A stretch of 18,265 nt of DNA from a virus. Its lineage: Duplodnaviria > Heunggongvirae > Uroviricota > Caudoviricetes. Shown here piece after piece: positions 1 through 18,265 of this stretch (the stretch's first letter is position 1; the number at the start of each line of letters is the position of its first letter). The DNA lies in the IMG/VR virus record IMGVR_UViG_2541047922_000008; one strand, given 5' to 3'. The notes beneath the pieces are model-generated. The model did not search any database and was not told where the DNA came from. It was given only the letters and a program-made list of their open reading frames with translations. The translations under genes and the position numbers were made by a program.

Positions 1-425
1 TTACCCAACGCAATTAAGTGCGTCAGAATCGATTACAGCGCGTTCCTGTGGCACGTTGTTGCCGTTCTCAGCAGTGAAAGGAGAGCGTGAAAAACGCATA
101 TCTATTACTGTTGAGGGGGGGGGGTAGCGGCATATATCGCGCATATCCACGCCGTTAATCCCGATACCGTCACGGCGCATTGAGATCCACCAGAAGATTA
201 AGATAGTTTACCTGAAATTATCCAAATAATTGTTTTAACTGATTAATTTTTCGAATATCTATTGTTAGGGAATAAATCATCAGATACACCATAAAACGAC
301 ATCTTTCAGGGTGTAGAAGATGCAAAGCTGGTATTGAAGAAAAGACAAAGAATATGAATGGCTGGCCACACGATGGAAGGATTGTCCATTGAGGGATAAA
401 TCCCCGTGGTACAAGTTTTGGTAAA

Positions 426-445
426 CCCGCGCTGCGGGCTTTTTT
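426..445 (+). terminator. putative rho-independent terminator (plus-strand polarity)
   Basis: Stem CCCGC (426-430), loop GCT, stem GCGGG (434-438), then CTTTTTTG. Stem is short and no plus-strand ORF in the window reads into it. Confidence 0.4.
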
Positions 446-666
446 GTGGACGAAACAAAAGTCAGTGCTACACTCATTGACGCCACATCGAGGTGGCTTA
501 TAGATGGAAATGTCACAATGAAAAAAGCATTTGCTGCACTGTTCTCTGGTGGCTTCAACTCAGGCCTTTGCCGGTCGTTGTCAGCACGACAGCGATACTG
601 CCGCTGACGGCTCCCGCTGCGGTGGGCGTTCTGCTGATTCCCGCCCGGGCGGCGGTGGCATTCGTT

Positions 667-691
667 AAAAACAAGGCCGCGAAAGCGGCCT
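667..691 (-). terminator. intrinsic terminator ending the giant-protein operon
   Basis: AGGCCGC-GAAA-GCGGCCT hairpin (674-691) with a GNRA loop, followed on the minus strand by TGTTTTT (667-673). Sits immediately 3' of the 104-aa gene stop at 700-702. Confidence 0.6.
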
Positions 692-699
692 GTGACATG

Positions 700-1014
700 T
701 CACGATAGTTCCGTTTTGTTGAATTCAATTATATCAAGGTCAGAACTTTCGTAATCCTTACCGAATAAAGCAAAACATATCGCGTCAAGTTCTCTCTTAT
801 GTTTGGACGCCCGATCATAATTACCACCCCAACAGCAAATGAATCCACCAAGTACTGCTGATTCAAAAAGTAATGATGCTGCATCAATATGTCTGAACCA
901 GGAGTCTATAAGTAAAGCAGAGAGTGATATTAATGTTCCCCACCCGCCAATCCTTCTCCATTTCTCAGCTTCATATTTAAGAGAAGCAATATATTCAATT
1001 TTATCTCTCGTCAT
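700..1014 (-). CDS. small membrane protein (104 aa, two predicted hydrophobic helices), last gene of the cargo operon
   Basis: ORF with ATG overlapping the upstream stop (TGATG at 1012-1016). Hydrophobic stretches WGTLISLSALLIDSWF and ASLLFESAVLGGFICCWGG. About 35% GC, versus about 50% for the neighbouring genes. Confidence 0.6.
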   Translation of the reverse strand: MTRDKIEYIASLKYEAEKWRRIGGWGTLISLSALLIDSWFRHIDAASLLFESAVLGGFICCWGGNYDRASKHKRELDAICFALFGKDYESSDLDIIEFNKTELS

Positions 1015-3770
1015 CAGTTCCCCACCGCCTTTCCAAAATCCGGTGCTCTACGTGGCGCAATAGCACCCGGTTCCCACCAACTCGTTATGTCGAACTCCCG
1101 TTGCGAGCGGTCCCTTACTCGATCATTGTAACCAGGGTTTGCCATCTCCTGAAGTTGTTGCAATATCAGGTGATTGGTTATCGCTTTCGCATACCACAGG
1201 TTTGCGAATGGGGTGATCATGCGGGCTGTTTTCAGTGCATCGGCACCGAATGATGTTTCTTCACCCTGTAGAGCCTTCTGTGGGTTAGTAATCAGTAATT
1301 TTGTTAACTGCTCTGCAAAGCTCAACACAGGGCCCCCCATAGTGGCACCGATGCTGGAGCCATATTGCGTATGGTCCTGGAAAATAAAATCACCGTAGAT
1401 ACCGAACGAACCACCTTTCAGTAAAGCCTGAACCCATGTGGTTGGTTTTGTCATATCCAGCGGATCATTACCATTTAACAAACTGTTCATCTGGATCGCA
1501 AACATACCAGCAAGAGTTGTTCCCCCGATATATGAGGCCAGAAATTTAATGGCCGGAACGGTGTCCAAATCCCGTGTTCTGTTAACAAGTTGCCGAAATC
1601 CAGCAAATGGGGTTGTTTTGAAGAGCATGAAGCTCTTCATTAACTCGCCAGCATCATCACGGGCATATGTATCAATACCCGTAGCGGTGGTCACAGCATT
1701 GGTCATCTCACCGTGCGTAATTCCCAGCAATTTCTGGGCTGCTTCAGCGCGTGCATTACGAATCATGCGCGTGATGGTCTGCTCAGCCTCAGCGTCGAAT
1801 GCTTCTTTCATCCGTTTCAGGCGTTCTGGAGGGAGATCTCCAAGGGCTGCCAGTGCCTTTTCACTCCCGGCACGAATCCGGGTAATACGGTCTGCCATAA
1901 TGTCGGCTATTACGTTATCGGGCACAGCGTAAATCGCGTCTGGCGTCATCCCCATATGCCCGGCAGTAGTCATCGGCCTGAGTTCTGCCGCTGCCATGAT
2001 GGCCCAGTCCTCATTGCTCCATCCCTTGTTAGCCAGAATGGTTTTATCGGTTCCTTTCATATCGTCCAGCGTCTTAAATTTTCTGGTCAGCTCGCCAATG
2101 TTTTTGTACATCAGGAGACCAAACGACGCTTTGTTTGCGCGGTCCATAGCGATCAGCCCGGACCACTTCAGTGTCTTCTCTGCGAACCAGCCAGTTATGC
2201 CGCGAGACAAGTCAAACCCGCCCATTTTCGAAACCACAGCAGCATGTGAATCCACCAGCAGACCGAGTTCAGCATTCGCCTTTTTGGCATCTCCACTAAA
2301 CAGGTTTTTGATAGTGTTAACGGAAAGCCGCATTCCACCACGGGTAAAGCCCAGCGCCTGCGCATTTGCCCGCATAATTGCCTGGTCGCTGGTTGCTGTC
2401 AGTACGCTGGTGCCAAGCATGGCGCTGGTCATCAGGTTACGCAGACCACCAACTGCTGAAGAGAACACACTCGATGAAGCGACACCATTTAGGCCAGCCA
2501 TTGAGTTGAACATACGGGCAACTAATTTGGCCTCATCCTCCATTTCTTTTTTGCGTTTCCCGCCTGTTACTGCGCGCTTATAGATGCGATCCAGTACCAG
2601 GGAAAAGTTTCTTTCGGCGTCCGGACCAAAGGCTTTAACGACGCCCAAATCCCTGGATGATGATTGCAGGTGCGACATCATCACCCCCACCAGCGGCTGC
2701 TGAGTGTATCGCTCCATATAGGCGAAGTGTGACTGCGCATCCTTGAACGCCATCACCCTGTGCTGAGAACCACGGCTCTTTATTCCTCCGGCTCCCATAA
2801 ATGTACCAGGCTCAATTTTGTTTGCCCCATCAGTGGCCTTCGTTTCAAAGATCGCTTCCAGTGCCTGACGGTACTCGACGTCATTCATAATGCTGCCGTC
2901 AGGATTAACGTAATTGCTGCGATCCTGCGTGTTGTAAGCGTCATCAACCCATTTCTGGCGGGCAAACTCAATCGGTGGCTGGCGACCTGAAAGACGTGCT
3001 GTAGCTTGCTCTGCCACTGGTAACGATGCCAGCCATTCTTCGCGCCCGGCATTGCGAATAAGGTCAGCATCATCCACATATGGCGTATGCCAGTCTTCTC
3101 GCAGGCCTATGTCAAAGCCATTGTCGTTCATCTCATGACGAACACGGCCTGTTACATCCTTCCAAATCTGTGCAATTTTCTTCGCCAGGGGATTCCCGGT
3201 ATCTTCGCCATATATTTCTTTCAGGATCTGGAGTTGTGCAGACTTTGCCGCCTGCCTGTCGAATACACTCCGAAACCGCTGCTCTCCAAGCGCCCTGCTC
3301 TGCTCGAAGAATTTGCGGACGTCATCACCTGCTTTTAGAAGTTCAGCACTGAGCTGACGGGACCAGTCCTGATATGCCCCAATTGCAAGCTCTTCAGCAG
3401 AAGTAACGGAGATATCAGCTTTGTCTCTCGATCGTCGGCCAGCAAAAATAAACTGCTGCAAATTAACAGGTGTCTGCTGATCAGGCGGGATGTTAGCATC
3501 GAGAGTGTCAGTAATTTTACTGATGGCGATCGCATTCTGGGCAACACGCTGTCTTTTCTTGTACACATCATGAACCACACGCTGGCGAACCAGTTCTGCA
3601 GCATCCATGTATGTTTGAGCATCAGGAATACCACTTTTGCCTTCCATTGCATTCTTTCTGTGCACTTGCCGCACAGCTTCTTTGATACGATCTTCGATAT
3701 TTTTCAGCTCATCAGCCTTTGGCTGGCGACCAAGTGTCTGCGCAATAGCTTCAACACATGCCTGTTTCAT
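1014..3770 (-). CDS. giant protein C (about 918 aa), unknown function, Gly/Ser/Ala-rich hydrophobic central region, no P-loop
   Basis: Long ORF. The ORF track starts at a GTG at 3791; I prefer the ATG at 3770, which overlaps the stop of protein B as TAATG (3768-3772), the same junction as between A and B. No Walker A motif seen. Confidence 0.85.
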   Translation of the reverse strand: MKQACVEAIAQTLGRQPKADELKNIEDRIKEAVRQVHRKNAMEGKSGIPDAQTYMDAAELVRQRVVHDVYKKRQRVAQNAIAISKITDTLDANIPPDQQTPVNLQQFIFAGRRSRDKADISVTSAEELAIGAYQDWSRQLSAELLKAGDDVRKFFEQSRALGEQRFRSVFDRQAAKSAQLQILKEIYGEDTGNPLAKKIAQIWKDVTGRVRHEMNDNGFDIGLREDWHTPYVDDADLIRNAGREEWLASLPVAEQATARLSGRQPPIEFARQKWVDDAYNTQDRSNYVNPDGSIMNDVEYRQALEAIFETKATDGANKIEPGTFMGAGGIKSRGSQHRVMAFKDAQSHFAYMERYTQQPLVGVMMSHLQSSSRDLGVVKAFGPDAERNFSLVLDRIYKRAVTGGKRKKEMEDEAKLVARMFNSMAGLNGVASSSVFSSAVGGLRNLMTSAMLGTSVLTATSDQAIMRANAQALGFTRGGMRLSVNTIKNLFSGDAKKANAELGLLVDSHAAVVSKMGGFDLSRGITGWFAEKTLKWSGLIAMDRANKASFGLLMYKNIGELTRKFKTLDDMKGTDKTILANKGWSNEDWAIMAAAELRPMTTAGHMGMTPDAIYAVPDNVIADIMADRITRIRAGSEKALAALGDLPPERLKRMKEAFDAEAEQTITRMIRNARAEAAQKLLGITHGEMTNAVTTATGIDTYARDDAGELMKSFMLFKTTPFAGFRQLVNRTRDLDTVPAIKFLASYIGGTTLAGMFAIQMNSLLNGNDPLDMTKPTTWVQALLKGGSFGIYGDFIFQDHTQYGSSIGATMGGPVLSFAEQLTKLLITNPQKALQGEETSFGADALKTARMITPFANLWYAKAITNHLILQQLQEMANPGYNDRVRDRSQREFDITSWWEPGAIAPRRAPDFGKAVGN

Positions 3771-5830
3771 TATGGGTTCCTCAAGAAGCACGCTGCCGCT
3801 ACAGAATAAACCTTCGATTCGTTCTGGACTGTCTTAATCTGTTCATCCAACTCAGCCAGGAGATCAGAAAGTTTTGTCGGGTTTCCGGTTTCCGGGTGAG
3901 CTATAGTCAGCTCAGGATTGGCAACAGCCATGTCCCTAGCAGCCATAAGGTCATAGCTGTTGGATGAGAGAACCTGCCCTGTATCTGGATCAACGCTGAC
4001 GTCCCCTCTGTGTTCACCAGCCGATGAGAAAGCACTTTCAGCACGAGGGACAGGCGATTCACTAATTGGCTCTGATGATGTTTCATATCTGACACCATTT
4101 TCTTCAAAAACCTTTTGTATTTCATGGTATTGCTCTTGGTAAGTATCAGATATATCTGATCGCAATGGACCATCAAGCCCTCGCGCCATCCCCCCAACAT
4201 TTACAGGCTGACCATCATTAAGTTGCCTGTATGCTTCATCCATGGCGTCAACATGGCTGTTGATGCTCTCATTGCTGGTGTGAAGCACTGGTGACGATTC
4301 AATATCGTAATGAAGCCCCTCATTCAAAATGTGGGCTGCATCAATATCGCTTGGTTTTATTCTTTCCCTCGCCCGGATACCAAAAACTTTTTCTACTGCG
4401 GCTTCCAGTTTCATATTGCGAAGACGCATACTTACGAGTAACCGTAACTGCTCAGGTGTAACGGTTCCAACCTGAATACCACTGTATCTGAATATATAGG
4501 CTTTAAAACCTGAAATAATTTTTTCCCATGATGAAACGCTTGTCTTTAGAGATGGATTTACTGCATGTGCGGCAACTTCTTCAGCGTACAACCACTCAGG
4601 ATATGTTTCAGGGTACTCACCCCTTTTCTTATATTCATAATATTGTGACATCCCATATGCAAATTCAGGATAGTCAGAATGCTTGTTTGCAGATTTAAGT
4701 ACAGCATTAGCTAGCTTTCTGGCCTTCCAGTCAGGGTAATGGCGCTGCTCAAGATGAAGCGCCTCGTGATGAAGGGTTTCTAACAGTTCTTCATGGTCTT
4801 TTAATCCATTAATATTTATTCTTATTATTGGTTCTTTTCCAGAAGCTACTGTCACATGACCTTTATTCAGAAGTATTTCTCCATCACTATTTTTTATTGC
4901 TGGTTCATTAATAAGTTCTATTACTCCTGAATCAGATAAATCACGAACCATTGACTCAATGTTACCATCAGGAGATTGCTGATAATGTTCACCAAAAGTT
5001 GATTTTATTTCTTCTGCAGAAATGTTCGACTCTGTACCATCATGGTTATTATGGGTAGTCAGGTGATGAACGCCACCAAAGACCCCGCCTAAAACGGCAT
5101 CGACTAACATCGCCTGACCGTCAAATACCCGGTACTGTTTTGCCATCTCCGTGTAGCCTTTTTCCTCCAGTGTTGCGCCGACAGAGTAACGGTTCAGTCC
5201 ACCGAATCCGGTGTTGATTGCCACACCTGAGGCAATGCGCGTTGCCAGTGTGGTGCCGACGGCAGCGGGTAAGGCCATACCCACAGCATTGAAAAGGCTT
5301 TGCTGCGTTGCCAGGTTACGCGCCGTAGCCTCGTCTACTCCCTTCCCTTTAAAATCCTGATAGGACTGCTCATACGTAGAACTGAAAGCTGTAGCAGCGC
5401 CGATGAGGGGACCGCCAAACATAGTTGTTCCGATTGCAGGAACAAATTTACCAAGCTCATTTAATACCTCAGCCGCCATTCCCTGACTGCCTGCATCAGG
5501 CTTCACATAGCTGCGGGCATCCTGTAACTGTTTTCCGATCGTGTCGTATGTATCATTCAGTGTTTTGTCAGCATCAGGGAACATCTCCCGAAAAATATTA
5601 ACAGTCGGTGCCACGTCTGCGGTAAATGCCGGATCGCTAATCAGGCGCTTGCTGAATCCGACGGCAGACTGCGCGAGACCGAGAGTCCCCTCCGCCACGC
5701 CGCTCAAAAGTGCAGTACCTGAACCCTGGAAGGGAGTCGGATCGTAGTCTTCTGGCCTTGCTGGGTTGGCAACTGTTTTGTCGTCAATCCATGCCTGACC
5801 TTCTGGAGCCAAAGAAAAAACATCAGACAT
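3770..5830 (-). CDS. giant protein B (686 aa), N-terminal glycine-rich hydrophobic segments plus a single HExxH zincin-type motif
   Basis: Long ORF whose ATG overlaps the stop of protein A (TAATG at 5828-5832). HHEALHLEQ at residues 354-362 (nt 4745-4771). GxxxG-rich hydrophobic stretches across residues about 120-260. No P-loop. Confidence 0.85.
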   Translation of the reverse strand: MSDVFSLAPEGQAWIDDKTVANPARPEDYDPTPFQGSGTALLSGVAEGTLGLAQSAVGFSKRLISDPAFTADVAPTVNIFREMFPDADKTLNDTYDTIGKQLQDARSYVKPDAGSQGMAAEVLNELGKFVPAIGTTMFGGPLIGAATAFSSTYEQSYQDFKGKGVDEATARNLATQQSLFNAVGMALPAAVGTTLATRIASGVAINTGFGGLNRYSVGATLEEKGYTEMAKQYRVFDGQAMLVDAVLGGVFGGVHHLTTHNNHDGTESNISAEEIKSTFGEHYQQSPDGNIESMVRDLSDSGVIELINEPAIKNSDGEILLNKGHVTVASGKEPIIRININGLKDHEELLETLHHEALHLEQRHYPDWKARKLANAVLKSANKHSDYPEFAYGMSQYYEYKKRGEYPETYPEWLYAEEVAAHAVNPSLKTSVSSWEKIISGFKAYIFRYSGIQVGTVTPEQLRLLVSMRLRNMKLEAAVEKVFGIRARERIKPSDIDAAHILNEGLHYDIESSPVLHTSNESINSHVDAMDEAYRQLNDGQPVNVGGMARGLDGPLRSDISDTYQEQYHEIQKVFEENGVRYETSSEPISESPVPRAESAFSSAGEHRGDVSVDPDTGQVLSSNSYDLMAARDMAVANPELTIAHPETGNPTKLSDLLAELDEQIKTVQNESKVYSVAAACFLRNP

Positions 5831-8361
5831 TATTCAACCCTCACGACAATAGCTTCATTGGTTCTGGGATCTGTTGCCCAGCGTCCGCTACCATTTACCA
5901 GCCGATACCGGTTATTGCCGATATTAACTGGTGTGAAGTTTGACACTGCATTTACGTTAAGTCCGGCTTCTTTCAGTGCTTGTTTCGCAGATGTGGTATA
6001 GCGATCTTTGAAAGTAGATTTATCCATGCCGAAAGGCATTACAACGTCGCCGCCATTAAAATCCTTGTATATACCGCCAGTAGCATACTTCACGGCATCA
6101 GCAACAGTGTCTGTATCAGGCATACTGGTTCTTACCGTAGATGCATCACCTGATTGATAAGCTATTCCTGCGTAAGCGGCTTTGAAAAGGCTATAACTGA
6201 TCTGACGTAACTGCGGGTTACGGGCAAATGCGTTACCTACCTGTTTGTCGAAAGCGTCTTTCATCTTATCTTCGCTCGGCAACTGTACCGGAGTTATGCC
6301 CGCATTCTTCATGGCCTTCGTCGGATTCAGTAGTTGGTCACCGGAAAGAATAACCTTTGCAACGTCGTACTTGTTCATCGTCGGCTTATACCCGATGAAC
6401 TGACTATATGGGATCGACGGTCTGGTGTTATCGTACTGATTATCCGGCGTGCCCAGCAGCAGCGCAGAATAGGCTGTTGCCGCACTGTTCGGAGCAATTA
6501 CAGATGCCACCTGCCGTATTGCTGGCGCAGGCAGCTTCTCCCCCATGCTCTGCAACAGTTTAATTGTCTGGTCAACGTTCTGAGTGCCGCGCACCTGCTG
6601 TGCCAGCGCAGCCGCCTCTTCACTGTTGAGGATTGGGGCATTAATTCCCAACGCGCGTAAGCTTTCCTGCGACGAGAAACGGTTAGCCACCTCGGCAGTG
6701 ATGTCGTCAGGGTTGTTGCTGGTGATCGGCTTATAGGCTCCGATTTCCACCGCTGCACTAAACGGATTATTCTGCCTCTGGGTTATTACCTTCGTGGCTG
6801 CCGCCGATACCCGGTCGAATAACTCCGCACGAGACGCATACCCCTCCCCTGTCTCACCAGTATCCGGGCGTAATTGCTCAACATATGCGGTAATGCTGCT
6901 TGTCGGCATGTTGCGGAAAGAGCCTATATACTGTCCGGCGATCTGCAAATTTCTGAACTCGGTATATCGCAGGTTTCCTTCTCTGACACCATAAGCAGCA
7001 ATGAACTCACCCTCACCAGGCGGGTTAGGAAATTCAACGCCACGCATATACGCAGCCGTTGCATCGCGAACCCGGCTTTCGAGCATCGTTCTATATTCAG
7101 CCTGCTGCTGTCTGGCTAATGCATCCGTCTGTCGCAACACGCTGGCCTGATCTGATTCACTTAAAGCATCGAACCAAGCTACACCGGTATAACGTTTATT
7201 TTTTGTCGGTAGCTGAGAAAGCCCCAGTGCGGCACTAACGCCAGCGGCCAATTGCTGATCACTGTACGGCTGACTGCCTTGCTCATGATGAATAATTGCT
7301 TTGCACAGAGATTTCAGTGTGTCAGGATTTGATGCGTCAAGCGGCTGGTCAGGAGTTACACCGAGCTGAGCACATACTGCCCGTATATAAGCATCAGTTT
7401 TATTATCATCACTGGCCGGTGCCCAGCGATTAATTATTTCGCTGATGGTGTCATAACCCTGACGCTGATACGACAGCAAATTGCGACCAAGCGCGCGAAT
7501 ACCGTGTTCAGGGGTTTCGAATTTGGCAAAGCGACCATCATCACCAGTCTGCCCAACCCACGGATTAGTTTTGCTGTATTCAAGATTGCCGGGGTTATTG
7601 TTGCGTATACCGCGGGTACGATCGGAAGAGCCACTATCTGCTACAGCACGGCGAGATCCAGCAGCAGTATCGCTTAACTCGCCGTTTTGCTGTCTTACCT
7701 GAAGATAGTTTGCTCCAATAGCATTTTGAGCAGTTGCTTTTGCTGTTGCTTCTTTAAACTCGATTTTCTTGGCCTGGATTTGCTCGTCGCTCCAGCCATG
7801 CGCAATACCGTAATCCTCAATTTGCTGGAAAGTTTGCGTATTAGCCAATATGTATGCTGCGTTGTCGCCATATAATGCTGAGGCATTTTTACCATTATTC
7901 AGCAGTGTCGCCTGAAACTGGCCTTCTTCGTAGGCATTTATTTGCCCTATCTCGTACCTCCCGGCCTGCGTAGCGAACTGAATACGCTGCTGCTGCGCCT
8001 GCTGCATGAAAGCATTACGAGCCTGTTCATCCGGCAGCGACATAGCCAGTTGTTCGATCTGAGCATCAAACTGCTGTGTATACTCATGGCCTTTTCCAAT
8101 AGCATTTTTCCCTTTCAGGTTAAGCAATCCTGTTTCAGGATTATTCAGCAGATCACTGCCTGTCTGACTGAGTTTAAGGGATGCCTCCTGAACCAAGGCA
8201 ATATTGGCGCGCTGTTTTGCCTGACCAAGAACATCAATTGCCTCTGTCCCTGCCCGAACAAAAGCATCACCAATACCTGGCTGAGAAAACGTCTGCAAGC
8301 CTGCTGACTGAACTCCACGGCTCTCAACCTGGCGTCCGGATACTGTTGGTACGACTGGCAT
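5830..8361 (-). CDS. giant protein A (843 aa), Q/A/N-rich, unknown function
   Basis: Long ORF with ATG at 8361 preceded by an AGGGGG Shine-Dalgarno. Sharply defined block TRGIRNNNPGNLEYSKTNPWVGQTGDDGRFAKFETPEHGIRALGRNLLSYQ at residues 248-299. No P-loop. Confidence 0.85.
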   Translation of the reverse strand: MPVVPTVSGRQVESRGVQSAGLQTFSQPGIGDAFVRAGTEAIDVLGQAKQRANIALVQEASLKLSQTGSDLLNNPETGLLNLKGKNAIGKGHEYTQQFDAQIEQLAMSLPDEQARNAFMQQAQQQRIQFATQAGRYEIGQINAYEEGQFQATLLNNGKNASALYGDNAAYILANTQTFQQIEDYGIAHGWSDEQIQAKKIEFKEATAKATAQNAIGANYLQVRQQNGELSDTAAGSRRAVADSGSSDRTRGIRNNNPGNLEYSKTNPWVGQTGDDGRFAKFETPEHGIRALGRNLLSYQRQGYDTISEIINRWAPASDDNKTDAYIRAVCAQLGVTPDQPLDASNPDTLKSLCKAIIHHEQGSQPYSDQQLAAGVSAALGLSQLPTKNKRYTGVAWFDALSESDQASVLRQTDALARQQQAEYRTMLESRVRDATAAYMRGVEFPNPPGEGEFIAAYGVREGNLRYTEFRNLQIAGQYIGSFRNMPTSSITAYVEQLRPDTGETGEGYASRAELFDRVSAAATKVITQRQNNPFSAAVEIGAYKPITSNNPDDITAEVANRFSSQESLRALGINAPILNSEEAAALAQQVRGTQNVDQTIKLLQSMGEKLPAPAIRQVASVIAPNSAATAYSALLLGTPDNQYDNTRPSIPYSQFIGYKPTMNKYDVAKVILSGDQLLNPTKAMKNAGITPVQLPSEDKMKDAFDKQVGNAFARNPQLRQISYSLFKAAYAGIAYQSGDASTVRTSMPDTDTVADAVKYATGGIYKDFNGGDVVMPFGMDKSTFKDRYTTSAKQALKEAGLNVNAVSNFTPVNIGNNRYRLVNGSGRWATDPRTNEAIVVRVE

Positions 8362-10387: not shown

Positions 10388-10446
10388 GCTGTTTGTTCTC
10401 CGGTTTTAACGTGATAGTTACGCTTGTTTACACTCTTACAGTGAAA

Positions 10447-10574
10447 TTTTGCGGGTTACAATCGCACATTTGCGGGTTATAACTGCCGTTTTGCGGGTTA
10501 CGTGCGGGTTATTGATTTCCTTTTTAATCATGCAGTTAATTAACTTATACACAGGATAACCCGCATAACCCGCA
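10447..10574. repeat. iteron cluster, putative origin of replication
   Basis: Four direct copies of TTTGCGGGTTA at 10447, 10468, 10488 and 10502 (spacing about 21, 21, 11 bp). Two inverted copies TAACCCGCA at 10557-10565 and 10566-10574. An AT-rich spacer lies between them. Located between the primase stop and the ssb start. Confidence 0.6.
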
Positions 10575-10597
10575 ACTTTTTACCTCACACAGGGAAG

Positions 10598-13025: not shown

Positions 13026-13283
13026 TTATTTCCCGGTATGGGGTTCTTCTTTATATTTATGGGCTAACAAATCTGGTAATTGCCTGTATTTATCCTCGGC
13101 AATATATTCAGAATAATCGACAGCACTGTTCAGTATATCTAACGCCGTTTCATGCTCCAGATTCGAAACTATAAGGAACGTTGCTACTTTTAGCATATTC
13201 GCGATATGCAAAAGAGCATCAATTTCATTTTTTGGCGCTTCACTGAATTTTTGCTCCAGAAGAATAAATCGTTCATCACGCAT
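13026..13283 (-). CDS. hypothetical protein (85 aa), AT-rich
   Basis: ORF 2 nt upstream of the 100-aa gene. Markedly AT-rich relative to neighbours. Confidence 0.5.
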   Translation of the reverse strand: MRDERFILLEQKFSEAPKNEIDALLHIANMLKVATFLIVSNLEHETALDILNSAVDYSEYIAEDKYRQLPDLLAHKYKEEPHTGK

Positions 13284-13479
13284 AGTATTCCCCCTGACGG
13301 ATGCGGGCAGTAAATACCATCACGCAGCCAGTCGGGGATTGCTGACGGGCTTCCTGTTCGCTGGCGGCCTCGATGTGTATTACGCGTGGTTGTGCGGTGC
13401 TCAGGGCGATAAAACGCCAGATGTATTTATTCAGGTTGTGCGAGTCCCGCCCTTGCGGGTGTGTGGTATGATTTAACAT
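13276..13479 (-). CDS. hypothetical small protein (67 aa), first gene of the leftward replication operon
   Basis: ATG at 13479 preceded by GAGGTAG. It is the 3' part of the 396-aa track ORF, whose upstream part runs through the operator palindromes and antisense to two better-supported plus-strand genes. Confidence 0.35.
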   Translation of the reverse strand: MLNHTTHPQGRDSHNLNKYIWRFIALSTAQPRVIHIEAASEQEARQQSPTGCVMVFTARIRQGEYYA

Positions 13480-13576
13480 AGCTACCTCGATACGCTTTCT
13501 ATCGTTGGTGGTTAGACGCCCTGCATGTGTTGCGAGCACTGCGGGGCGTTGCTTAATTTGAGCAATGCAACCCAAA

Positions 13577-13616
13577 CTGTGCGCACAGATTAAAATCATG
13601 TGTGCGCACATGTCAA
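13577..13616 (-). promoter_or_regulatory. leftward promoter with palindromic operators
   Basis: Perfect -35 TTGACA on the minus strand (13611-13616). It overlaps the perfect 16-bp palindrome CATGTGTGCGCACATG (13597-13612). A perfect 12-bp palindrome CTGTGCGCACAG (13577-13588) lies at the expected transcription start. A half-site TTGTGTGCGCC sits near 13645-13657. The -10 hexamer is weak (TTAATC). Confidence 0.5.
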
Positions 13617-13684
13617 TACTTAACTTCTCACTTTTTTTGCTGTATTGTGTGCGCCCATCAAATCCATTTAAGTGAGGTGTACCA

Positions 13685-13882
13685 ATGTCTAGCGGAAACA
13701 CAAACAACAAATCAGCAAAGAAAAATATTCGATTCCCGCACGAGCTTATAGATGGGATTGATGCCAGTGTTGAACAAGAAAAATTAACTAATCCTAGTGC
13801 TAATTTTTCCGCATGGGTCTTAGATGCCTGTGGACGCAAATTAAAATATGAACAGCGCCGGAAGGCCAAAGAGCAGGAGTAA
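13685..13882 (+). CDS. small ribbon-helix-helix-like DNA-binding protein (65 aa), candidate repressor
   Basis: GAGGTG Shine-Dalgarno 6 nt upstream. NIRFPHELIDGIDASVEQE fits the Arc/MetJ beta-strand plus helix pattern (R-F-P-x-E-L). Transcribed divergently from the operator-bearing promoter. Confidence 0.55.
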   Translation: MSSGNTNNKSAKKNIRFPHELIDGIDASVEQEKLTNPSANFSAWVLDACGRKLKYEQRRKAKEQE

Positions 13883-13939
13883 CCATCACCAGCGCCGTGG
13901 TGCGGTGAACTGTGGCGCACAGGGTTACAGGTATCTACG

Positions 13940-14137
13940 ATGACTGACAAATCATTAAAGAAATTATCCTCATCCAGGAAAAAACAACGCAAAAATGCGG
14001 TAAGCGAACAAGAACAGGAAAGATTTGCGCCATGTGCGTTTGTCCTTGAGAAGTTCTTAAAAGAGTACAGGCGCACAAAAATGGAATCGCATACCTGGAA
14101 AACATCGCAGTATGGCGATGCTAAAGAGCAGGAATAG
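13940..14137 (+). CDS. small basic protein (65 aa), hypothetical
   Basis: ORF with a weak Shine-Dalgarno. Its last codons and the about 15 nt after the stop repeat the 3' end of the upstream small gene. Confidence 0.4.
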   Translation: MTDKSLKKLSSSRKKQRKNAVSEQEQERFAPCAFVLEKFLKEYRRTKMESHTWKTSQYGDAKEQE

Positions 14138-14227
14138 CCCACCAGCAAGCCAGCACACTGATCACATTGCCCACCAGCCGCAAATCTGGCATTGTTGGCG
14201 ATGCGTTTGATTTCCTTTGTTCCCACT

Positions 14228-14255
14228 GGCGACCTATCCCGGTCGCCTTTGTTTT
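14228..14255 (+). terminator. intrinsic terminator for the plus-strand small-gene transcript
   Basis: GGCGACC-TATCCC-GGTCGCC hairpin (14228-14247) followed by TTTGTTTT. No T-run on the minus strand. Confidence 0.5.
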
Positions 14256-14305
14256 GCCTGTTATCCAGCAACGGGGCGCTTTTTCTTTCTGTAACGTTCG
14301 GATCG

Positions 14306-14863
14306 TTACACATTGCTTTCACCCTCCAGAAAATCAGGCTGATATTTACGCCATAGCGCCCGCTCTTCTCGTTCCAGTGCATCTTTTGCCTCTTTGCATT
14401 GCTGTAACCTGTAACCGCGTTTGCTGGCTTCCTGTTGATATGCAGCCTGACGTTTACTGAAATCATTCAGCATGGCAAACGGAACACCATAACCCCCCGT
14501 TTTGCGGATTGAAGGAATCACCTCGCGGAATACCCAGTTACTGAAACGGTGCGCAAATGTGCCTGGTGTGGAAGCTTTACGGCTGCGGGCGATCAGTTTG
14601 TAGAAACCTGATTCAGAGACAACATTCCAGCTTCTGGCACCACCACGCTTACCGGAATGACCCTCGGTTAAAGCTAGGGTCATTACCTCATCGTTATCCA
14701 GAACTGAAACGGCATCAGTAACATTGCTGATTTCCAGCGCGGCACACACATCAGCGCCAACAAACCACGGCTCGCCGTTGATACTCACTATGCGCACCTG
14801 AATGTCATCGAATTTAATGACAGAGATTTCAGTGCGACCAGCATAAAAGACAGGTTTACGCAT
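14306..14863 (-). CDS. Bro-N domain protein (phage antirepressor family)
   Basis: VIKFDDIQVRIVSINGEPWFVGADVCAALEI matches the Bro-N signature. 8-nt overlap with the upstream gene. Confidence 0.8.
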   Translation of the reverse strand: MRKPVFYAGRTEISVIKFDDIQVRIVSINGEPWFVGADVCAALEISNVTDAVSVLDNDEVMTLALTEGHSGKRGGARSWNVVSESGFYKLIARSRKASTPGTFAHRFSNWVFREVIPSIRKTGGYGVPFAMLNDFSKRQAAYQQEASKRGYRLQQCKEAKDALEREERALWRKYQPDFLEGESNV

Positions 14864-15656: not shown

Positions 15657-15731
15657 AAAAACACCTGCTGTCGAATTAAGTTACTTTTATTTGCTAGTGG
15701 ATAGCTTGGGCAATAACCCGTAGCTATTTAA

Positions 15732-15929
15732 TCAGGCAGCCGTTCCGCGTGATTCGGCAATACGCTGATTGATCCATTCGTCAATTTCACTTTCAACGAA
15801 AGCAATCGCTCGCGAGCCAATTTTAACTGATGCAGGAAATTTACCTTGCCCCATAAGGCGATAAATCCATGCCTTGCTATATCCAGTTCTACGCTGAACT
15901 TCTGTTAAACGAATAAGCGTATTTGACAT
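15732..15929 (-). CDS. alpA: AlpA/Vis-family HTH regulator (excisionase-like)
   Basis: LIRLTEVQRRTGYSKAWIYRLMGQGKFPASVKIGSRAIAFVESEIDEWI is the classic AlpA (Phage_AlpA) pattern. GAGGT Shine-Dalgarno. Confidence 0.85.
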   Translation of the reverse strand: MSNTLIRLTEVQRRTGYSKAWIYRLMGQGKFPASVKIGSRAIAFVESEIDEWINQRIAESRGTAA

Positions 15930-15933
15930 CTAT

Positions 15934-16109
15934 TTACCTCATAACGTCTACTCAATTTGACGAGGTAATCATGGCACAGAAATAACGAATATTTTCATAC
16001 CCTCAGGCCTAATGGTTACCGGAAGGAAATTAACCCTAAGGGTGATGGTAAAATTGACGGGGAAGATAAAAAAAATACCCTCAGGGTAACAGTAAATCAC
16101 CCTCAGGGT
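15934..16109 (-). promoter_or_regulatory. alpA leader: Shine-Dalgarno-sequestering inverted repeat plus phased palindromes
   Basis: Inverted repeat TTACCTC (15934-15940) / GAGGTAA (15962-15968) pairs the alpA Shine-Dalgarno with an upstream anti-SD. Palindrome ACCCTCAGGGT at 16077-16087 and 16099-16109, variant ACCCTAAGGGT at 16033-16043, half-site ACCCTCAGG at 15988-15996. Centre-to-centre spacing 45, 44 and 22 bp. Confidence 0.5.
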
Positions 16110-16124
16110 ATGTGGTATGGTGCG

Positions 16125-16928
16125 TTAATCCGGCTTTGCGTTCTTTTGGCTGTTGTCTCGGTTAATAGGGCAGGCAGTCCTCTCTATGAGCGTTGCAAGA
16201 GCATTACTTGCCCCCCACTGCTTAAGCTCCCTGGTTATCGCTTCTTGATTTCCCCTGGTGGCAAAATCATTTTCTGGATCGTAATTGGCCCACTCTCTGT
16301 TTCTAATCTCAATAGCCTTAGCTAATGGGTCTTTATCCCAGTATTTATATAAGTGTATCGGGCGCTCTTGCTCTAACTGCTCTATCCTTGCCCTTAACTC
16401 TGCGTTTTCTCTTTCCAGCATTGCGATTTGGGATAATAAATCATCCTCTGTACGCAACTCTTTCTTTTCAATATCGCGTCCTTGTGCCTCGTCATTTTCA
16501 GAAGAGTTAGCGCCTTCCAGCTTCGTTAACGCGTCAAGGACATCGGGAAAAATTGCGAAAATTTCACCCCTTATAAATCCAATGTTCTCAAATTCGGGAT
16601 CTTCCCAATAACCGGACACCAGAAAACCATTTTCATCCCTCTCACCAGGTAAACAACCATGTTTCCGAACCGCATCCAGATTTCTATAAAGAACATCATA
16701 ATCAAATTCATCCCGATACGGGTTACAAAAAGATTCCAACAGCTTAAATTCATTTACTGTGTACAGGCGGATATGTTCTCCGCTTATTCTCCTGAGTATC
16801 CAAGTTATGAGATCTGAAACATCATAATCATCACCAGCGACCTTAAGCACGACCTCAAGAAATTCACGTAAAGAAATAAAATCTTTTTTGTATTCGTTTA
16901 ATTCGGCATGAATATCAATCATACGCAC
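16125..16928 (-). CDS. acidic protein (267 aa) with central coiled coil, unknown function
   Basis: ORF with GAGGTG Shine-Dalgarno. About 56 Asp+Glu versus about 36 Lys+Arg. Heptad-like segment LLSQIAMLERENAELRARIEQLEQER. Sits between int and alpA. Confidence 0.6.
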   Translation of the reverse strand: MRMIDIHAELNEYKKDFISLREFLEVVLKVAGDDYDVSDLITWILRRISGEHIRLYTVNEFKLLESFCNPYRDEFDYDVLYRNLDAVRKHGCLPGERDENGFLVSGYWEDPEFENIGFIRGEIFAIFPDVLDALTKLEGANSSENDEAQGRDIEKKELRTEDDLLSQIAMLERENAELRARIEQLEQERPIHLYKYWDKDPLAKAIEIRNREWANYDPENDFATRGNQEAITRELKQWGASNALATLIERTACPINRDNSQKNAKPD

Positions 16929-17050
16929 ACCTCAGCGTCCTCTACTGTAGTGGCTGTGCCAGCCCGTCGAGGTATACGGTTTTTCGGGAGCGACCCTAGA
17001 CACAGCCTTTTCTTTCGTCGCTCAAAGTCTACTACTGTATACTCAACCAG

Positions 17051-18265
17051 TCATCCACATTTTCCGAACTTGCCATGCACCACGTTGCCGCCCTGTTCCA
17101 GTGAGTCCATATAGTCGGCGTACCACTGGAGCATCTCGCGCCGCCCGTCCAGATATTGCGCATGATTGTACGTGCCACGAATTGAGTTCTTATCAACGTG
17201 TGCAAGCTGCGTTTCTATCCACGCGGTGTTATAGCCCTGCTCATGTAAAATCGTGCTCATCGTGTGCCGGAACCCATGACCAGTAACGCGCCCAGAATAG
17301 CCAATACGACGAATAAGCACGTTCATCGCCATTTCACTCATCGGCTTACTGTGCTGGATTCGACCAGGGAAAATAAACTGATACTGCCCCGTCATGTGTT
17401 TTAACTGTTCCAGAATAGCGATCGCCTGTTCTGAAAGCGGCACACAATGAGGACGGCGCATCTTCATTCGTTCTTTAGGCACTTCCCACAAACGATTATC
17501 AAAATCGATCTCCTGCCATTCTGCCTGTCGTAATTCCCCTGGCCGGAGCCCTGTCAGAATCAATAATCGCATACCCAGCTTGACGATCTGGCTTCCGGTG
17601 TACGTATTAAGAACGCGGAAAAATTCCGGCAGTTCGTCGGCCTTCAAATAGGCATAATGCTCTTTTTTGTGTGGAGCAAATGCGCTTGCCAGATCTGGTG
17701 CGGGGTTATATTCAGCGCGTCCGGTGATGATTGCGTACCGGAACACCTCGCCGCATCGCTGGCGAACCTTACGCAATTTTTCGGTCGCCCCACGGTCATT
17801 AAGACGGGAGAGAACCGCAAGCAACTCCATTGGCTTAATTTCTGCGATCGGCCTGCCGCCAATGTACGGAAAAACGTCTTTTTCAAACGTCTCGATCATT
17901 TCCTCGGCGTATGACGATGACCACCTGTCGATCCGCTTTTCATACCATTCGCGAGCGATACCCTCAAAAGTATTGCCAAATTTGCTCGCCTGTTCTCGCT
18001 TTTGAGCTTTTCTGGCCTCACTTGGATTTATACCACCAGCAAGAAGCCTTTTAGCCTCATCCCTTGCCGCTCTGGCATCAGACAGAGACACATCAGGGTA
18101 CACGCCCAACGACAACATTTTGGGCTTTCCTGCAAATCTGTAACGTAGTCGCCACCCTTTCGAGCCGTTCGGCTCAATGAGTAACGAAAGCCCGTTACCG
18201 TCATTGAGTGTATAAGCCTTTTCTTTCGGCTTCGCGCGCCTGATAGCAAGGTCTGAAAGCAGCAT
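17051..18265 (-). CDS. int: tyrosine recombinase, P4-type integrase
   Basis: N-terminal arm-binding pattern LSDLAIRRAKPKEKAYTLNDGNGLSLLIEPNGSKGWRLRYRF. Catalytic-domain residues GLRPGELRQ, HGFRHT and the tyrosine in RGTYNHAQY. The ATG is the last three bases of the window. Confidence 0.9.
   Translation of the reverse strand: MLLSDLAIRRAKPKEKAYTLNDGNGLSLLIEPNGSKGWRLRYRFAGKPKMLSLGVYPDVSLSDARAARDEAKRLLAGGINPSEARKAQKREQASKFGNTFEGIAREWYEKRIDRWSSSYAEEMIETFEKDVFPYIGGRPIAEIKPMELLAVLSRLNDRGATEKLRKVRQRCGEVFRYAIITGRAEYNPAPDLASAFAPHKKEHYAYLKADELPEFFRVLNTYTGSQIVKLGMRLLILTGLRPGELRQAEWQEIDFDNRLWEVPKERMKMRRPHCVPLSEQAIAILEQLKHMTGQYQFIFPGRIQHSKPMSEMAMNVLIRRIGYSGRVTGHGFRHTMSTILHEQGYNTAWIETQLAHVDKNSIRGTYNHAQYLDGRREMLQWYADYMDSLEQGGNVVHGKFGKCG

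Follow-up and report, generated by a model that had tools for sequence, protein, structure and literature searches.

Palindromic sites and a Shine–Dalgarno hairpin as candidate control elements upstream of alpA in a satellite island of Escherichia coli

Introduction

The phage-inducible chromosomal islands (PICIs) of Gram-negative bacteria have AlpA as their master activator, a protein that also activates its own promoter, for example in EcCICFT073 and EcCIMP1; helper phages induce alpA transcription, even in a delta-alpA background, by means of an unidentified factor, and these islands have no known repressor (PMC6092414; PMC11773190). What, then, lies in front of alpA, and what might read it? 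Here we take up those questions at a single locus: an 18,265-nucleotide stretch of viral DNA (IMG/VR record IMGVR_UViG_2541047922_000008; hereafter, the window) that belongs to a satellite island of E. coli and in which 195 bp, positions 15930–16124, separate alpA from an upstream gene, orf267, whose product we call OrfU. With a little better than even confidence, we regard these 195 bp as the cis-regulatory region of alpA, made up of an operator array for OrfU, a terminator, and a hairpin over the Shine–Dalgarno (SD) sequence, the binding, the binder, and the transcription start site (TSS) all being predictions. Elements of all these kinds are familiar; within the literature that we searched, no description was found of the OrfU family, the arrays matched to it, or the alpA leader hairpin.

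In layout, the locus invites comparison with the Stl system of Staphylococcus aureus pathogenicity islands (SaPIs) and other PICIs. There, as here, a regulator gene stands beside int, with sites between the regulator and the gene that sets off excision and replication; there, as would be the case here, the element controls satellite induction, and the diversified part of OrfU would fit the sensing of helper proteins. The likeness does not extend to the proteins themselves, between which there is no similarity of sequence or detectable similarity of fold, nor to orientation: orf267 is co-oriented with alpA, whereas the Stl arrangement is divergent, and repression by OrfU is putative. OrfU is, moreover, absent from EcCICFT073 and EcCIMP1, and Gram-negative PICIs, unlike the Stl system, have been described without a known repressor (PMC6092414).

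The lambdoid repressor cI at OR and OL offers a second likeness, with short palindromic operators, helical phasing, and the weakest site at the promoter. The placement of cI at OR2 relative to PRM is comparable to that of an alpA site centered near -43, if the TSS is at about 15961. The sites here are, however, 11 bp long rather than 17, the array extends over about 110–175 bp, no divergent promoter pair is present, and OrfU, with its coiled coil and unclassified C-terminal domain, is unlike a lambdoid repressor.

For the leader, the nearest parallel is the fold-back inhibition of IS10/Tn10, in which, as far as the account relayed in PMC13181058 goes (Davis, Simons & Kleckner 1985), an upstream segment pairs with the ribosome-binding site and external read-through transcripts go untranslated. 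Here too a 5′ segment can pair with the ribosome-binding site, and a candidate -10 element abuts the 5′ arm, as that model requires; the gene concerned is a transposase gene there and a regulator/excisionase gene here, distant relatives have their promoter upstream of the arm, and the alpA TSS is a predicted one. ROSE and fourU thermometers likewise occlude the SD with one modest hairpin (about -8 kcal/mol here), although the alpA leader carries neither signature and has no Rfam match. Finally, the AlpA of Pseudomonas aeruginosa is a Q-like antiterminator whose DNA contacts lie in residues 128–142 and whose N-terminal segment rings the RNA exit channel (PMC7969949, PMC9371919). It shares with our case the family name, an element at the promoter, and a terminator nearby. 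We have set antitermination of this type aside: that protein is much larger, at more than twice the length of the 65-residue AlpA here, its binding element is different (GGGACG, between -35 and -10), and the repeats here do not track AlpA. In Shewanella, alpA is silenced by H-NS.

Results

Four Palindromes on a Helical Grid

The palindrome ACCCTNAGGGT occurs four times in the gap, with centers at 16104, 16082, 16038, and 16004 (sites 1–4) (Table 1). ACCCTSAGGGT is exact at sites 1 and 2; site 3 fits ACCCTNAGGGT exactly and departs from ACCCTSAGGGT at the central base only. An earlier reading of the window, made from its letters alone (the sequence-only reading), had reported three to four copies spaced at 45, 44, and 22 bp; the copies are real, and they number four, but the spacings run 22, 44, and 34 bp from start to start, so that the "45" should be 34. 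Could so short a palindrome have gathered here by chance? A 37-kb record that covers the entire island with its flanks on either side contains four matches with no more than one mismatch, three of them being sites 1–3, where 0.48 would be expected, and none of 100 shuffles reached four. The motif occurs nowhere else in the island, and related loci, 497 kb in all, hold no exact copy outside the regions upstream of alpA.

What relatives preserve is the grid. Relative to the alpA ATG, site centers lie at -75, -109, -153, and -175 in the window and at -74, -108, -151, -174, and -206 in Kluyvera (L036); of the Kluyvera positions, the distal four recur in Pantoea (L016) and Symbiopectobacterium (L033), and Klebsiella and metagenome loci have closely related grids, all with spacer sequences that cannot be aligned. 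Eighteen of 21 spacings fall no more than 1 bp from a multiple of 11. Strains of E. coli carry three to six sites, having gained or lost whole units of 33 or 22 bp, and the proximal site, which abuts a conserved promoter block, is always the weakest. A conserved grid with diverged spacers and whole-unit insertions and deletions argues for selection on a cooperative protein–DNA assembly that is placed relative to the promoter. The palindromes show the dyad symmetry, the clustering at a promoter, and the conservation of both sequence and position between diverged flanks that one would look for in an operator array, and the earlier proposal of helically phased sites for a dimeric regulator fits this behavior well, insofar as comparison of genera can tell.

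The 33-bp unit TTACCATCACCCTTAGGGTTAATTTCCTTCCGG is present once, twice, or three times in E. coli (window, L002, L003, L004, L163, L169), and one variant is without a 22-bp unit. Most of the best-matching genomes listed carry the allele that is 33 bp longer, the one-unit allele of the window being found only in the three best matches.

The Array Changes with the C Terminus of OrfU

Which protein might read such an array? Our candidate is the product of the adjacent gene. In OrfU, the N-terminal domain is variable, a coiled coil is predicted at about residues 159–186, and the C-terminal helical domain, for which a confident five-helix model was obtained (predicted local distance difference test, 80), is conserved. 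Searches for a known fold or family gave no significant match, a profile search of Protein Data Bank sequences with OrfU returned coiled-coil noise only, Pfam and PHROGs gave for the OrfU classes DUF6387 alone, which belongs to a different class, and none of 50,697 phage genomes gave a tblastn match to the C-terminal domain. There being no match to a known fold, it is co-variation that suggests DNA binding.

The palindromes (class 1) are seen only behind OrfU proteins whose C-terminal domain ends in "...ACPI(K/N)R"; a diverged, homologous C terminus, "AVNLVLRP," accompanies GGTGGG/CCCACC repeats, and an unrelated one accompanies direct ACTTCCA repeats. In other words, the repeat class tracks the C-terminal 75–95 residues of OrfU, while the N-terminal domains are shuffled independently: L014 has an N terminus like those of L018 and L035 and a C terminus and repeats unlike theirs. 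Of 47 distinct IMG/VR loci that encode a homologue of the orf267 C-terminal domain, two or more sites follow within the next 330 nt in 39, and alpA lies within 400 nt in 44; four more contexts (metagenomes, Mannheimia) show the same order. In the most diverged C-terminal domains (L209/L219, L155), the repeat sequence has changed as well. Within 3 kb on either side, OrfU is the sole protein family associated with the motif class (p = 4e-5).

The two other classes may be described briefly. Class 2 (L014, L005, L027, L039, L047, L076) has five to seven direct ACTTCCA repeats upstream of alpA, and class 3 (L011, L019, L034) has GGTGGGYRC/GCCCACC inverted repeats; each has its own OrfU C-terminal domain, with alpA leader and protein unchanged. 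A prophage-like contig (L137, 5476–6350) encodes an OrfU-like protein of 258 aa, with a MerR/excisionase-like N terminus and the C terminus ...ERVACPINRGR, behind which come the palindromes seen in the window and what is left of an alpA promoter block; alpA itself is missing, and the next gene is a convergent XRE-type regulator.

The alternative that survives best, and one that we nonetheless consider unlikely, is that the palindromes are targets of a DNA-binding inducer of alpA supplied by the helper phage (or by the host), OrfU being an unrelated cargo or defense neighbor. The alpA promoter is, after all, induced by helpers even in delta-alpA islands and in islands that have no OrfU, and the int–alpA interval is a variable slot that holds many unrelated genes. 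A phage regulon with the same palindrome does exist: in one metagenomic phage contig (L153; IMGVR_UViG_3300037313_000197, 126,890 bp), TACCCTSAGGGTA is repeated at least 27 times within positions 1–8100, for the most part with TTGACA about 10 nt downstream on the gene strand and a GACCCCGAAGGGGCC-type hairpin thereafter. However, that contig has no DNA relative in the phage collection, and its CCA-transferase tree is uninformative; with millions of viral contigs to choose from, agreement over 10 bases may be coincidence; and where the motif was found in paired copies in some 25 further viral contigs, these proved to be ordinary terminators or unrelated tandem repeats. The motif class follows the C-terminal domain of OrfU at 37–100% identity and across genera, and it switches when the domain does.

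In EcCIMP1, which is without OrfU (L009/L091, EcCIMP1-type), the int–alpA spacer of 428 bp contains two direct copies of CGCTGACAAAGCG-AATGTTCTTTAA, which are candidate cis elements of its helper-inducible alpA promoter.

A Leader Hairpin over the Shine–Dalgarno Sequence

On the alpA mRNA, the sequence-only reading had paired the SD, GAGGUAA, with an upstream UUACCUC across a loop of 21 nt, had taken this to occlude ribosome binding, and had counted a thermodynamically negligible hairpin as evidence against the idea. The arms (15934–15940 and 15962–15968) are exactly as it described, fully complementary and 21 nt apart, and one G-U pair lengthens the stem to 9 bp, closing a loop of 17 nt. Folded by itself, the window's leader comes close to the negligible result: its 76 nt fold at -9.5 kcal/mol and the hairpin alone at -8.2, with z = +0.72, no better than shuffles. 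The occlusion claim is nevertheless upheld when alpA leaders are compared.

For that comparison, we took 80 alpA loci from other Enterobacterales (AlpA 68–83% identical) together with the E. coli alleles, which gave 49 leaders of <80% identity, and we used dinucleotide shuffles of the upstream part of each leader as the control. The SD pairs with upstream sequence at a mean probability of 0.73, against 0.53 in shuffles; pairing exceeds 0.8 in 25 of the 49 leaders and in 8.6% of shuffles; and stems overlapping the SD reach a score of at least 7 in 61% of leaders but in 10% of shuffles. By lineage, the arms themselves differ, being UUACCUCGU/AUGAGGUAA in some and AUAUACCUC/GAGGUAUAU, CUCCUGUAG/CUACAGGAG, CUCCUAUAG/CUAUAGGAG, GCACCUCA/UGAGGUGC, CCCUGUU/AACAGGG, or CCUCG/CGAGG in others. 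When SD segments were swapped among leaders, the native upstream region paired at 7.53 and foreign ones at 6.10, and none of 5,000 permutations reached the observed mean. The SD is thus paired in the predicted ensemble, and the structure is kept beyond what the shuffle and swap controls yield; judged by comparison, alpA leaders have conserved the sequestration of their SD. A covariance model built from the closest leader group found near-identical leaders only, and an Rfam 15 scan of 15700–16300 gave one match, no better than chance (E = 0.29; 16 bits, where the gathering score is 49).

Might the inverted repeat instead be an operator in the DNA, or simply what arises when a purine-rich SD lies beside pyrimidine-rich DNA? 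The unremarkable z score, the 0.53 that shuffled leaders already reach, and the fair pairing of foreign upstream regions all lend this some color, as does a loop motif, GTAGAC/GTCTAC, that is present in either orientation. Against it, arm sequences vary widely at 70–100% AlpA identity, which leaves no common site for a protein; the 3′ arm overlaps the SD in every case; and the stems contain 29 G-U pairs to 16 A-C mismatches, with the stem of one leader (L012) retained through three G-U pairs that would be mismatches in DNA. The excess of G-U over A-C and the L012 stem favor RNA over a DNA palindrome, and we think the DNA or chance explanation quite improbable.

The loop itself is conserved beyond the needs of the stem: it reads TAGACGTTA in the window and GTAAACCGCAATAGACGTTA or GTAGACC in many genera (leaders L011–L090), and in Xenorhabdus and Photorhabdus, the reverse complement, ACGTCTAC/ACGTCCAC, adjoins the 5′ arm of the hairpin. 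In a short alpA transcript, the loop segment GACGUU can pair with the start-codon region, GAUGUC. The motif could serve as a site for AlpA, as context for the TSS, or as a partner in alternative pairing.

Candidate alpA Promoters

Whether the SD is masked depends, in the predicted ensemble, on where the RNA begins. Its probability of being paired is 0.83–0.92 for transcripts that start at or upstream of 15968, with 0.91 for long RNAs against 0.11–0.29 for 5′ ends at 15959–15963. Two candidate promoters bracket the choice. P2 is an extended -10 element; its pattern, TGnNAnnnT, recurs at -46/-47 from the ATG in 10 of 11 class-1 rows, or, with L030 as the exception, in 8 of 9 distinct class-1 loci. 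In 16 of 38 leaders, where about 4–5 would be expected, the anti-SD arm is directly adjoined by the best -10-like hexamer. P1 lies farther upstream, within a conserved block, GAGGGTATGAAAAT; in distant relatives (L209/L219), the homologous position holds a perfect TTGCTATAAT, and the promoter there is clearly upstream of the anti-SD arm. On the evidence of conservation, alpA may start at P1 or at P2, both of which are candidates, and either way, RNA reading through from int–orf267 is predicted to be translationally masked.

A Credible Terminator at Sites 1 and 2

As RNA, sites 1 and 2 form a hairpin that begins 14 nt after the orf267 stop codon and is followed by eight U residues (Table 1), which is the form of an intrinsic terminator; in this E. 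coli lineage, the combination is a credible one. Neither this element nor the co-variation of the array with the C terminus of OrfU figured in the sequence-only reading.

It is fair to ask whether the palindromes act in RNA only, as terminator or attenuator hairpins that end the int–orf267 transcript with no protein bound to the DNA. Sites 1 and 2 fold at -23.9 kcal/mol ahead of their U run, and the leader as a whole folds with z = -3.4, pairing site 1 with site 2 and site 3 with site 4. However, Pantoea, Kluyvera, Symbiopectobacterium, and Klebsiella have no U run although they conserve both the sites and the positions of the sites, and its absence there marks termination as an add-on, not as the reason that the sites exist. 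What appears selected is an exact 5-1-5 DNA palindrome with 11-bp phasing rather than mere complementarity of arms, and the proximal half-site is conserved beside promoter elements. Taken together, these points make a purely RNA-level role very improbable.

AlpA and the Integrase as Binders

AlpA and the integrase had both been named earlier as possible binders of the palindromes, and neither proposal held up. For AlpA at autoregulatory sites of its own, there is the precedent that AlpA, a winged-helix protein, activates its promoter in EcCICFT073 and EcCIMP1. Yet identical AlpA proteins stand behind three different repeat classes, namely palindromes in L036, ACTTCCA in L038, and GGTGGG in L034, and the helix-turn-helix segment TGYSKAW(I/L)YRL is invariant across them. 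An unchanging protein is not the specific reader of a changing site, and we put the chances of this explanation very low.

We rejected as the least probable of all the idea that the sites are integrase arms or replication iterons, for although they are repeated and phased, the integrase carries an arm-binding domain, and class-2 relatives bear iteron-like direct repeats, arms should lie within a few hundred base pairs of the attP core at the island ends and iterons should flank an AT-rich core by a rep or primase gene, whereas the 37-kb record has no copy of the motif near either att end, about 2.3 kb separate the array from the tRNA-Gly att site (attL), a canonical origin with a different repeat (TTGCGGGTTA) lies elsewhere (10441–10583), after the DUF927 primase gene, and the integrase, unlike OrfU alone, is not specifically associated with class-1 loci.

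The Island and Its Genes

The region around the gap (15700–17050; 1,351 bases queried) is 100% identical to E. coli FDAARGOS_1298, where the island, about 19 kb long and with every gene on the minus strand, is inserted at tRNA-Gly and flanked by actS and yqeG. The gene that the sequence-only reading called alpA is indeed that: its product scores 69.4 bits against a cutoff of 21 in Pfam (Phage_AlpA/HTH_17), and it also matches the PHROG "excisionase and transcriptional regulator." After alpA come antA, Bro-N, DUF4222, the DUF927 primase, SSB, ProQ/FinO, and PerC, a gene set equal to that of EcCIMP1, a PICI proven by experiment. As marks of a PICI, we used int, alpA, a primase or replicase with an adjacent iteron origin, a length of about 15–20 kb, site-specific integration, and the lack of a full virion set. 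With int, alpA, primase and iteron origin, and specific integration all in evidence, the element is, by its gene content, an EcCIMP1-like PICI-type satellite. In its likely origin, two TTGCGGGTTA iterons are followed by about 40 bp of AT-rich core and then by five inverted copies of TAACCCGCA at 10–21 bp spacing.

Three large co-oriented ORFs (925, 686, and 843 aa) at 1014–8361, annotated as hypothetical, match PHROG families: phrog_684, "virion structural protein" (1.6e-295); phrog_1145; and phrog_992, "head protein / tail injection transglycosylase" (1e-289). To judge by these matches, they look like ejection or internal virion proteins carried on a satellite-type island, so that the lack of virion genes holds in part only. 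A 396-aa ORF at 13276–14466 is probably no gene; all that RefSeq annotates there is one short gene, Icd-like, at the 3′ end of the ORF, together with genes of the YlcI/YnfO family on the other strand, and residues 305–392 alone match the PHROG "transcriptional repressor."

Table 1. Positions in the window of the genes, sites, and predicted elements discussed here
Feature	Position	Strand	Description
int	17051–18265	-	Island gene; integrase has arm-binding domain
int–alpA interval			orf267 (16125–16922, -), then 195-bp gap before alpA
orf267/OrfU	16125–16922	-	265 aa from annotated ATG; proposed array binder (co-occurrence)
orf267 C-terminal-domain segment	16155–16367	-	Residues 186–256, "...DPL..AIEIRN.EW..YDP.ND..TRGNQ..I..EL...G.....A..IE..ACPI.R"; alignments A2, A3
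Terminator-like element	16068–16111	-	Sites 1 + 2 as 15-bp hairpin, -23.9 kcal/mol, then U8 (16075–16068)
Site 1	16099–16109	.	Exact palindrome
Site 2	16077–16087	.	Exact palindrome
Site 3	16033–16043	.	ACCCTAAGGGT on + strand; extra direct half-site TACCAT before site on mRNA strand
33-bp unit	16019–16051	-	TTACCATCACCCTTAGGGTTAATTTCCTTCCGG; 1–3 copies depending on E. coli strain
Site 4	15999–16009	.	GGCCTGAGGGT; promoter-proximal, degenerate, 2 mismatches, one good half-site
P1, alternative candidate -10	15994–15999	-	TATGAA; directly after proximal half-site; predicted
P2, candidate extended -10	15968–15976	-	TGcCATGAT; abuts anti-SD arm; predicted start ~15961
Hairpin 5′ anti-SD arm	15960–15968	-	UUACCUCGU; loop 15943–15959 (17 nt) bears conserved TAGACGTTA
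Hairpin 3′ arm	15934–15942	-	AUGAGGUAA; includes SD GAGGUAA
alpA	15732–15929	-	65 aa; AlpA-family master regulator; Pfam PF05930 (Phage_AlpA), 2.4e-19
Likely replication origin	10441–10583		Directly 3′ of DUF927 primase stop (10598)

Discussion

How might these elements work together? We propose that the palindromes are operators for a dimeric protein that would assemble cooperatively on one face of the helix and that the weak, promoter-proximal site would let the operator-bound protein control the alpA promoter. The binder would be the orf267 product, with its N-terminal domain as a putative sensor, its coiled coil for dimerization, and its C-terminal domain for the sites. Perfect distal sites with a weak one beside or over the -35 region would suit a cooperative activator or a repressor alike. 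Read-through from int–orf267 would, in this E. coli lineage, be terminated at the hairpin of sites 1 and 2 with its U8; in any transcript that begins upstream of 15968, the anti-SD segment UUACCUCGU would fold onto the SD and keep translation of the self-activating AlpA low. If P2 (15976–15968) is real, then alpA's own transcript would start inside or just after the anti-SD arm and would escape the block, which would amount to fold-back insulation of the IS10 type.

Several results weigh against this proposal. In folding energy, 152 of 200 shuffles do at least as well as the window's 76-nt leader; the closest leader group shows conservation of the stem, not covariation, with a double change in one pair only; and RNAalifold on 22 MAFFT-aligned leaders gave no consensus structure, because the arms do not line up between leader groups. 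A simple sigma-70 promoter scan found no site in the region, so that P1 and P2 are proposed from conservation, and the promoter upstream of the arm in L209/L219 means that escape of alpA's own transcript cannot be general. The joint occurrence of array and OrfU C terminus could stem from the physical linkage of adjacent elements. Lastly, EcCIMP1 and EcCICFT073 respond to helper phage although they have no OrfU, which makes OrfU at most an added layer.

One may go further and suppose, tentatively and with more doubt than belief, that the genes between int and alpA (orf267 and its relatives) are a modular family of sensor-regulators that link helper infection to PICI induction, with the leader hairpin as a second, translational lock. 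On that supposition, a swappable N-terminal domain would detect a helper product, and a novel C-terminal DNA-binding domain, matched to the array class, would act as a repressor or as a gated activator.

For the question of how Gram-negative satellites sense their helpers, the region described here gives cis elements that can be mutated: four to six palindromes, a candidate promoter, and an SD lock. It also offers, in OrfU, a candidate trans-acting factor whose N-terminal domain could plausibly be a sensor, while the copy-number polymorphism of the 33-bp unit in E. coli provides natural alleles for the study of cooperativity, and the joint switching of array class and OrfU C terminus bears on specificity. 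If OrfU does bind DNA, then its C-terminal domain would be a DNA-binding fold that has no current classification.

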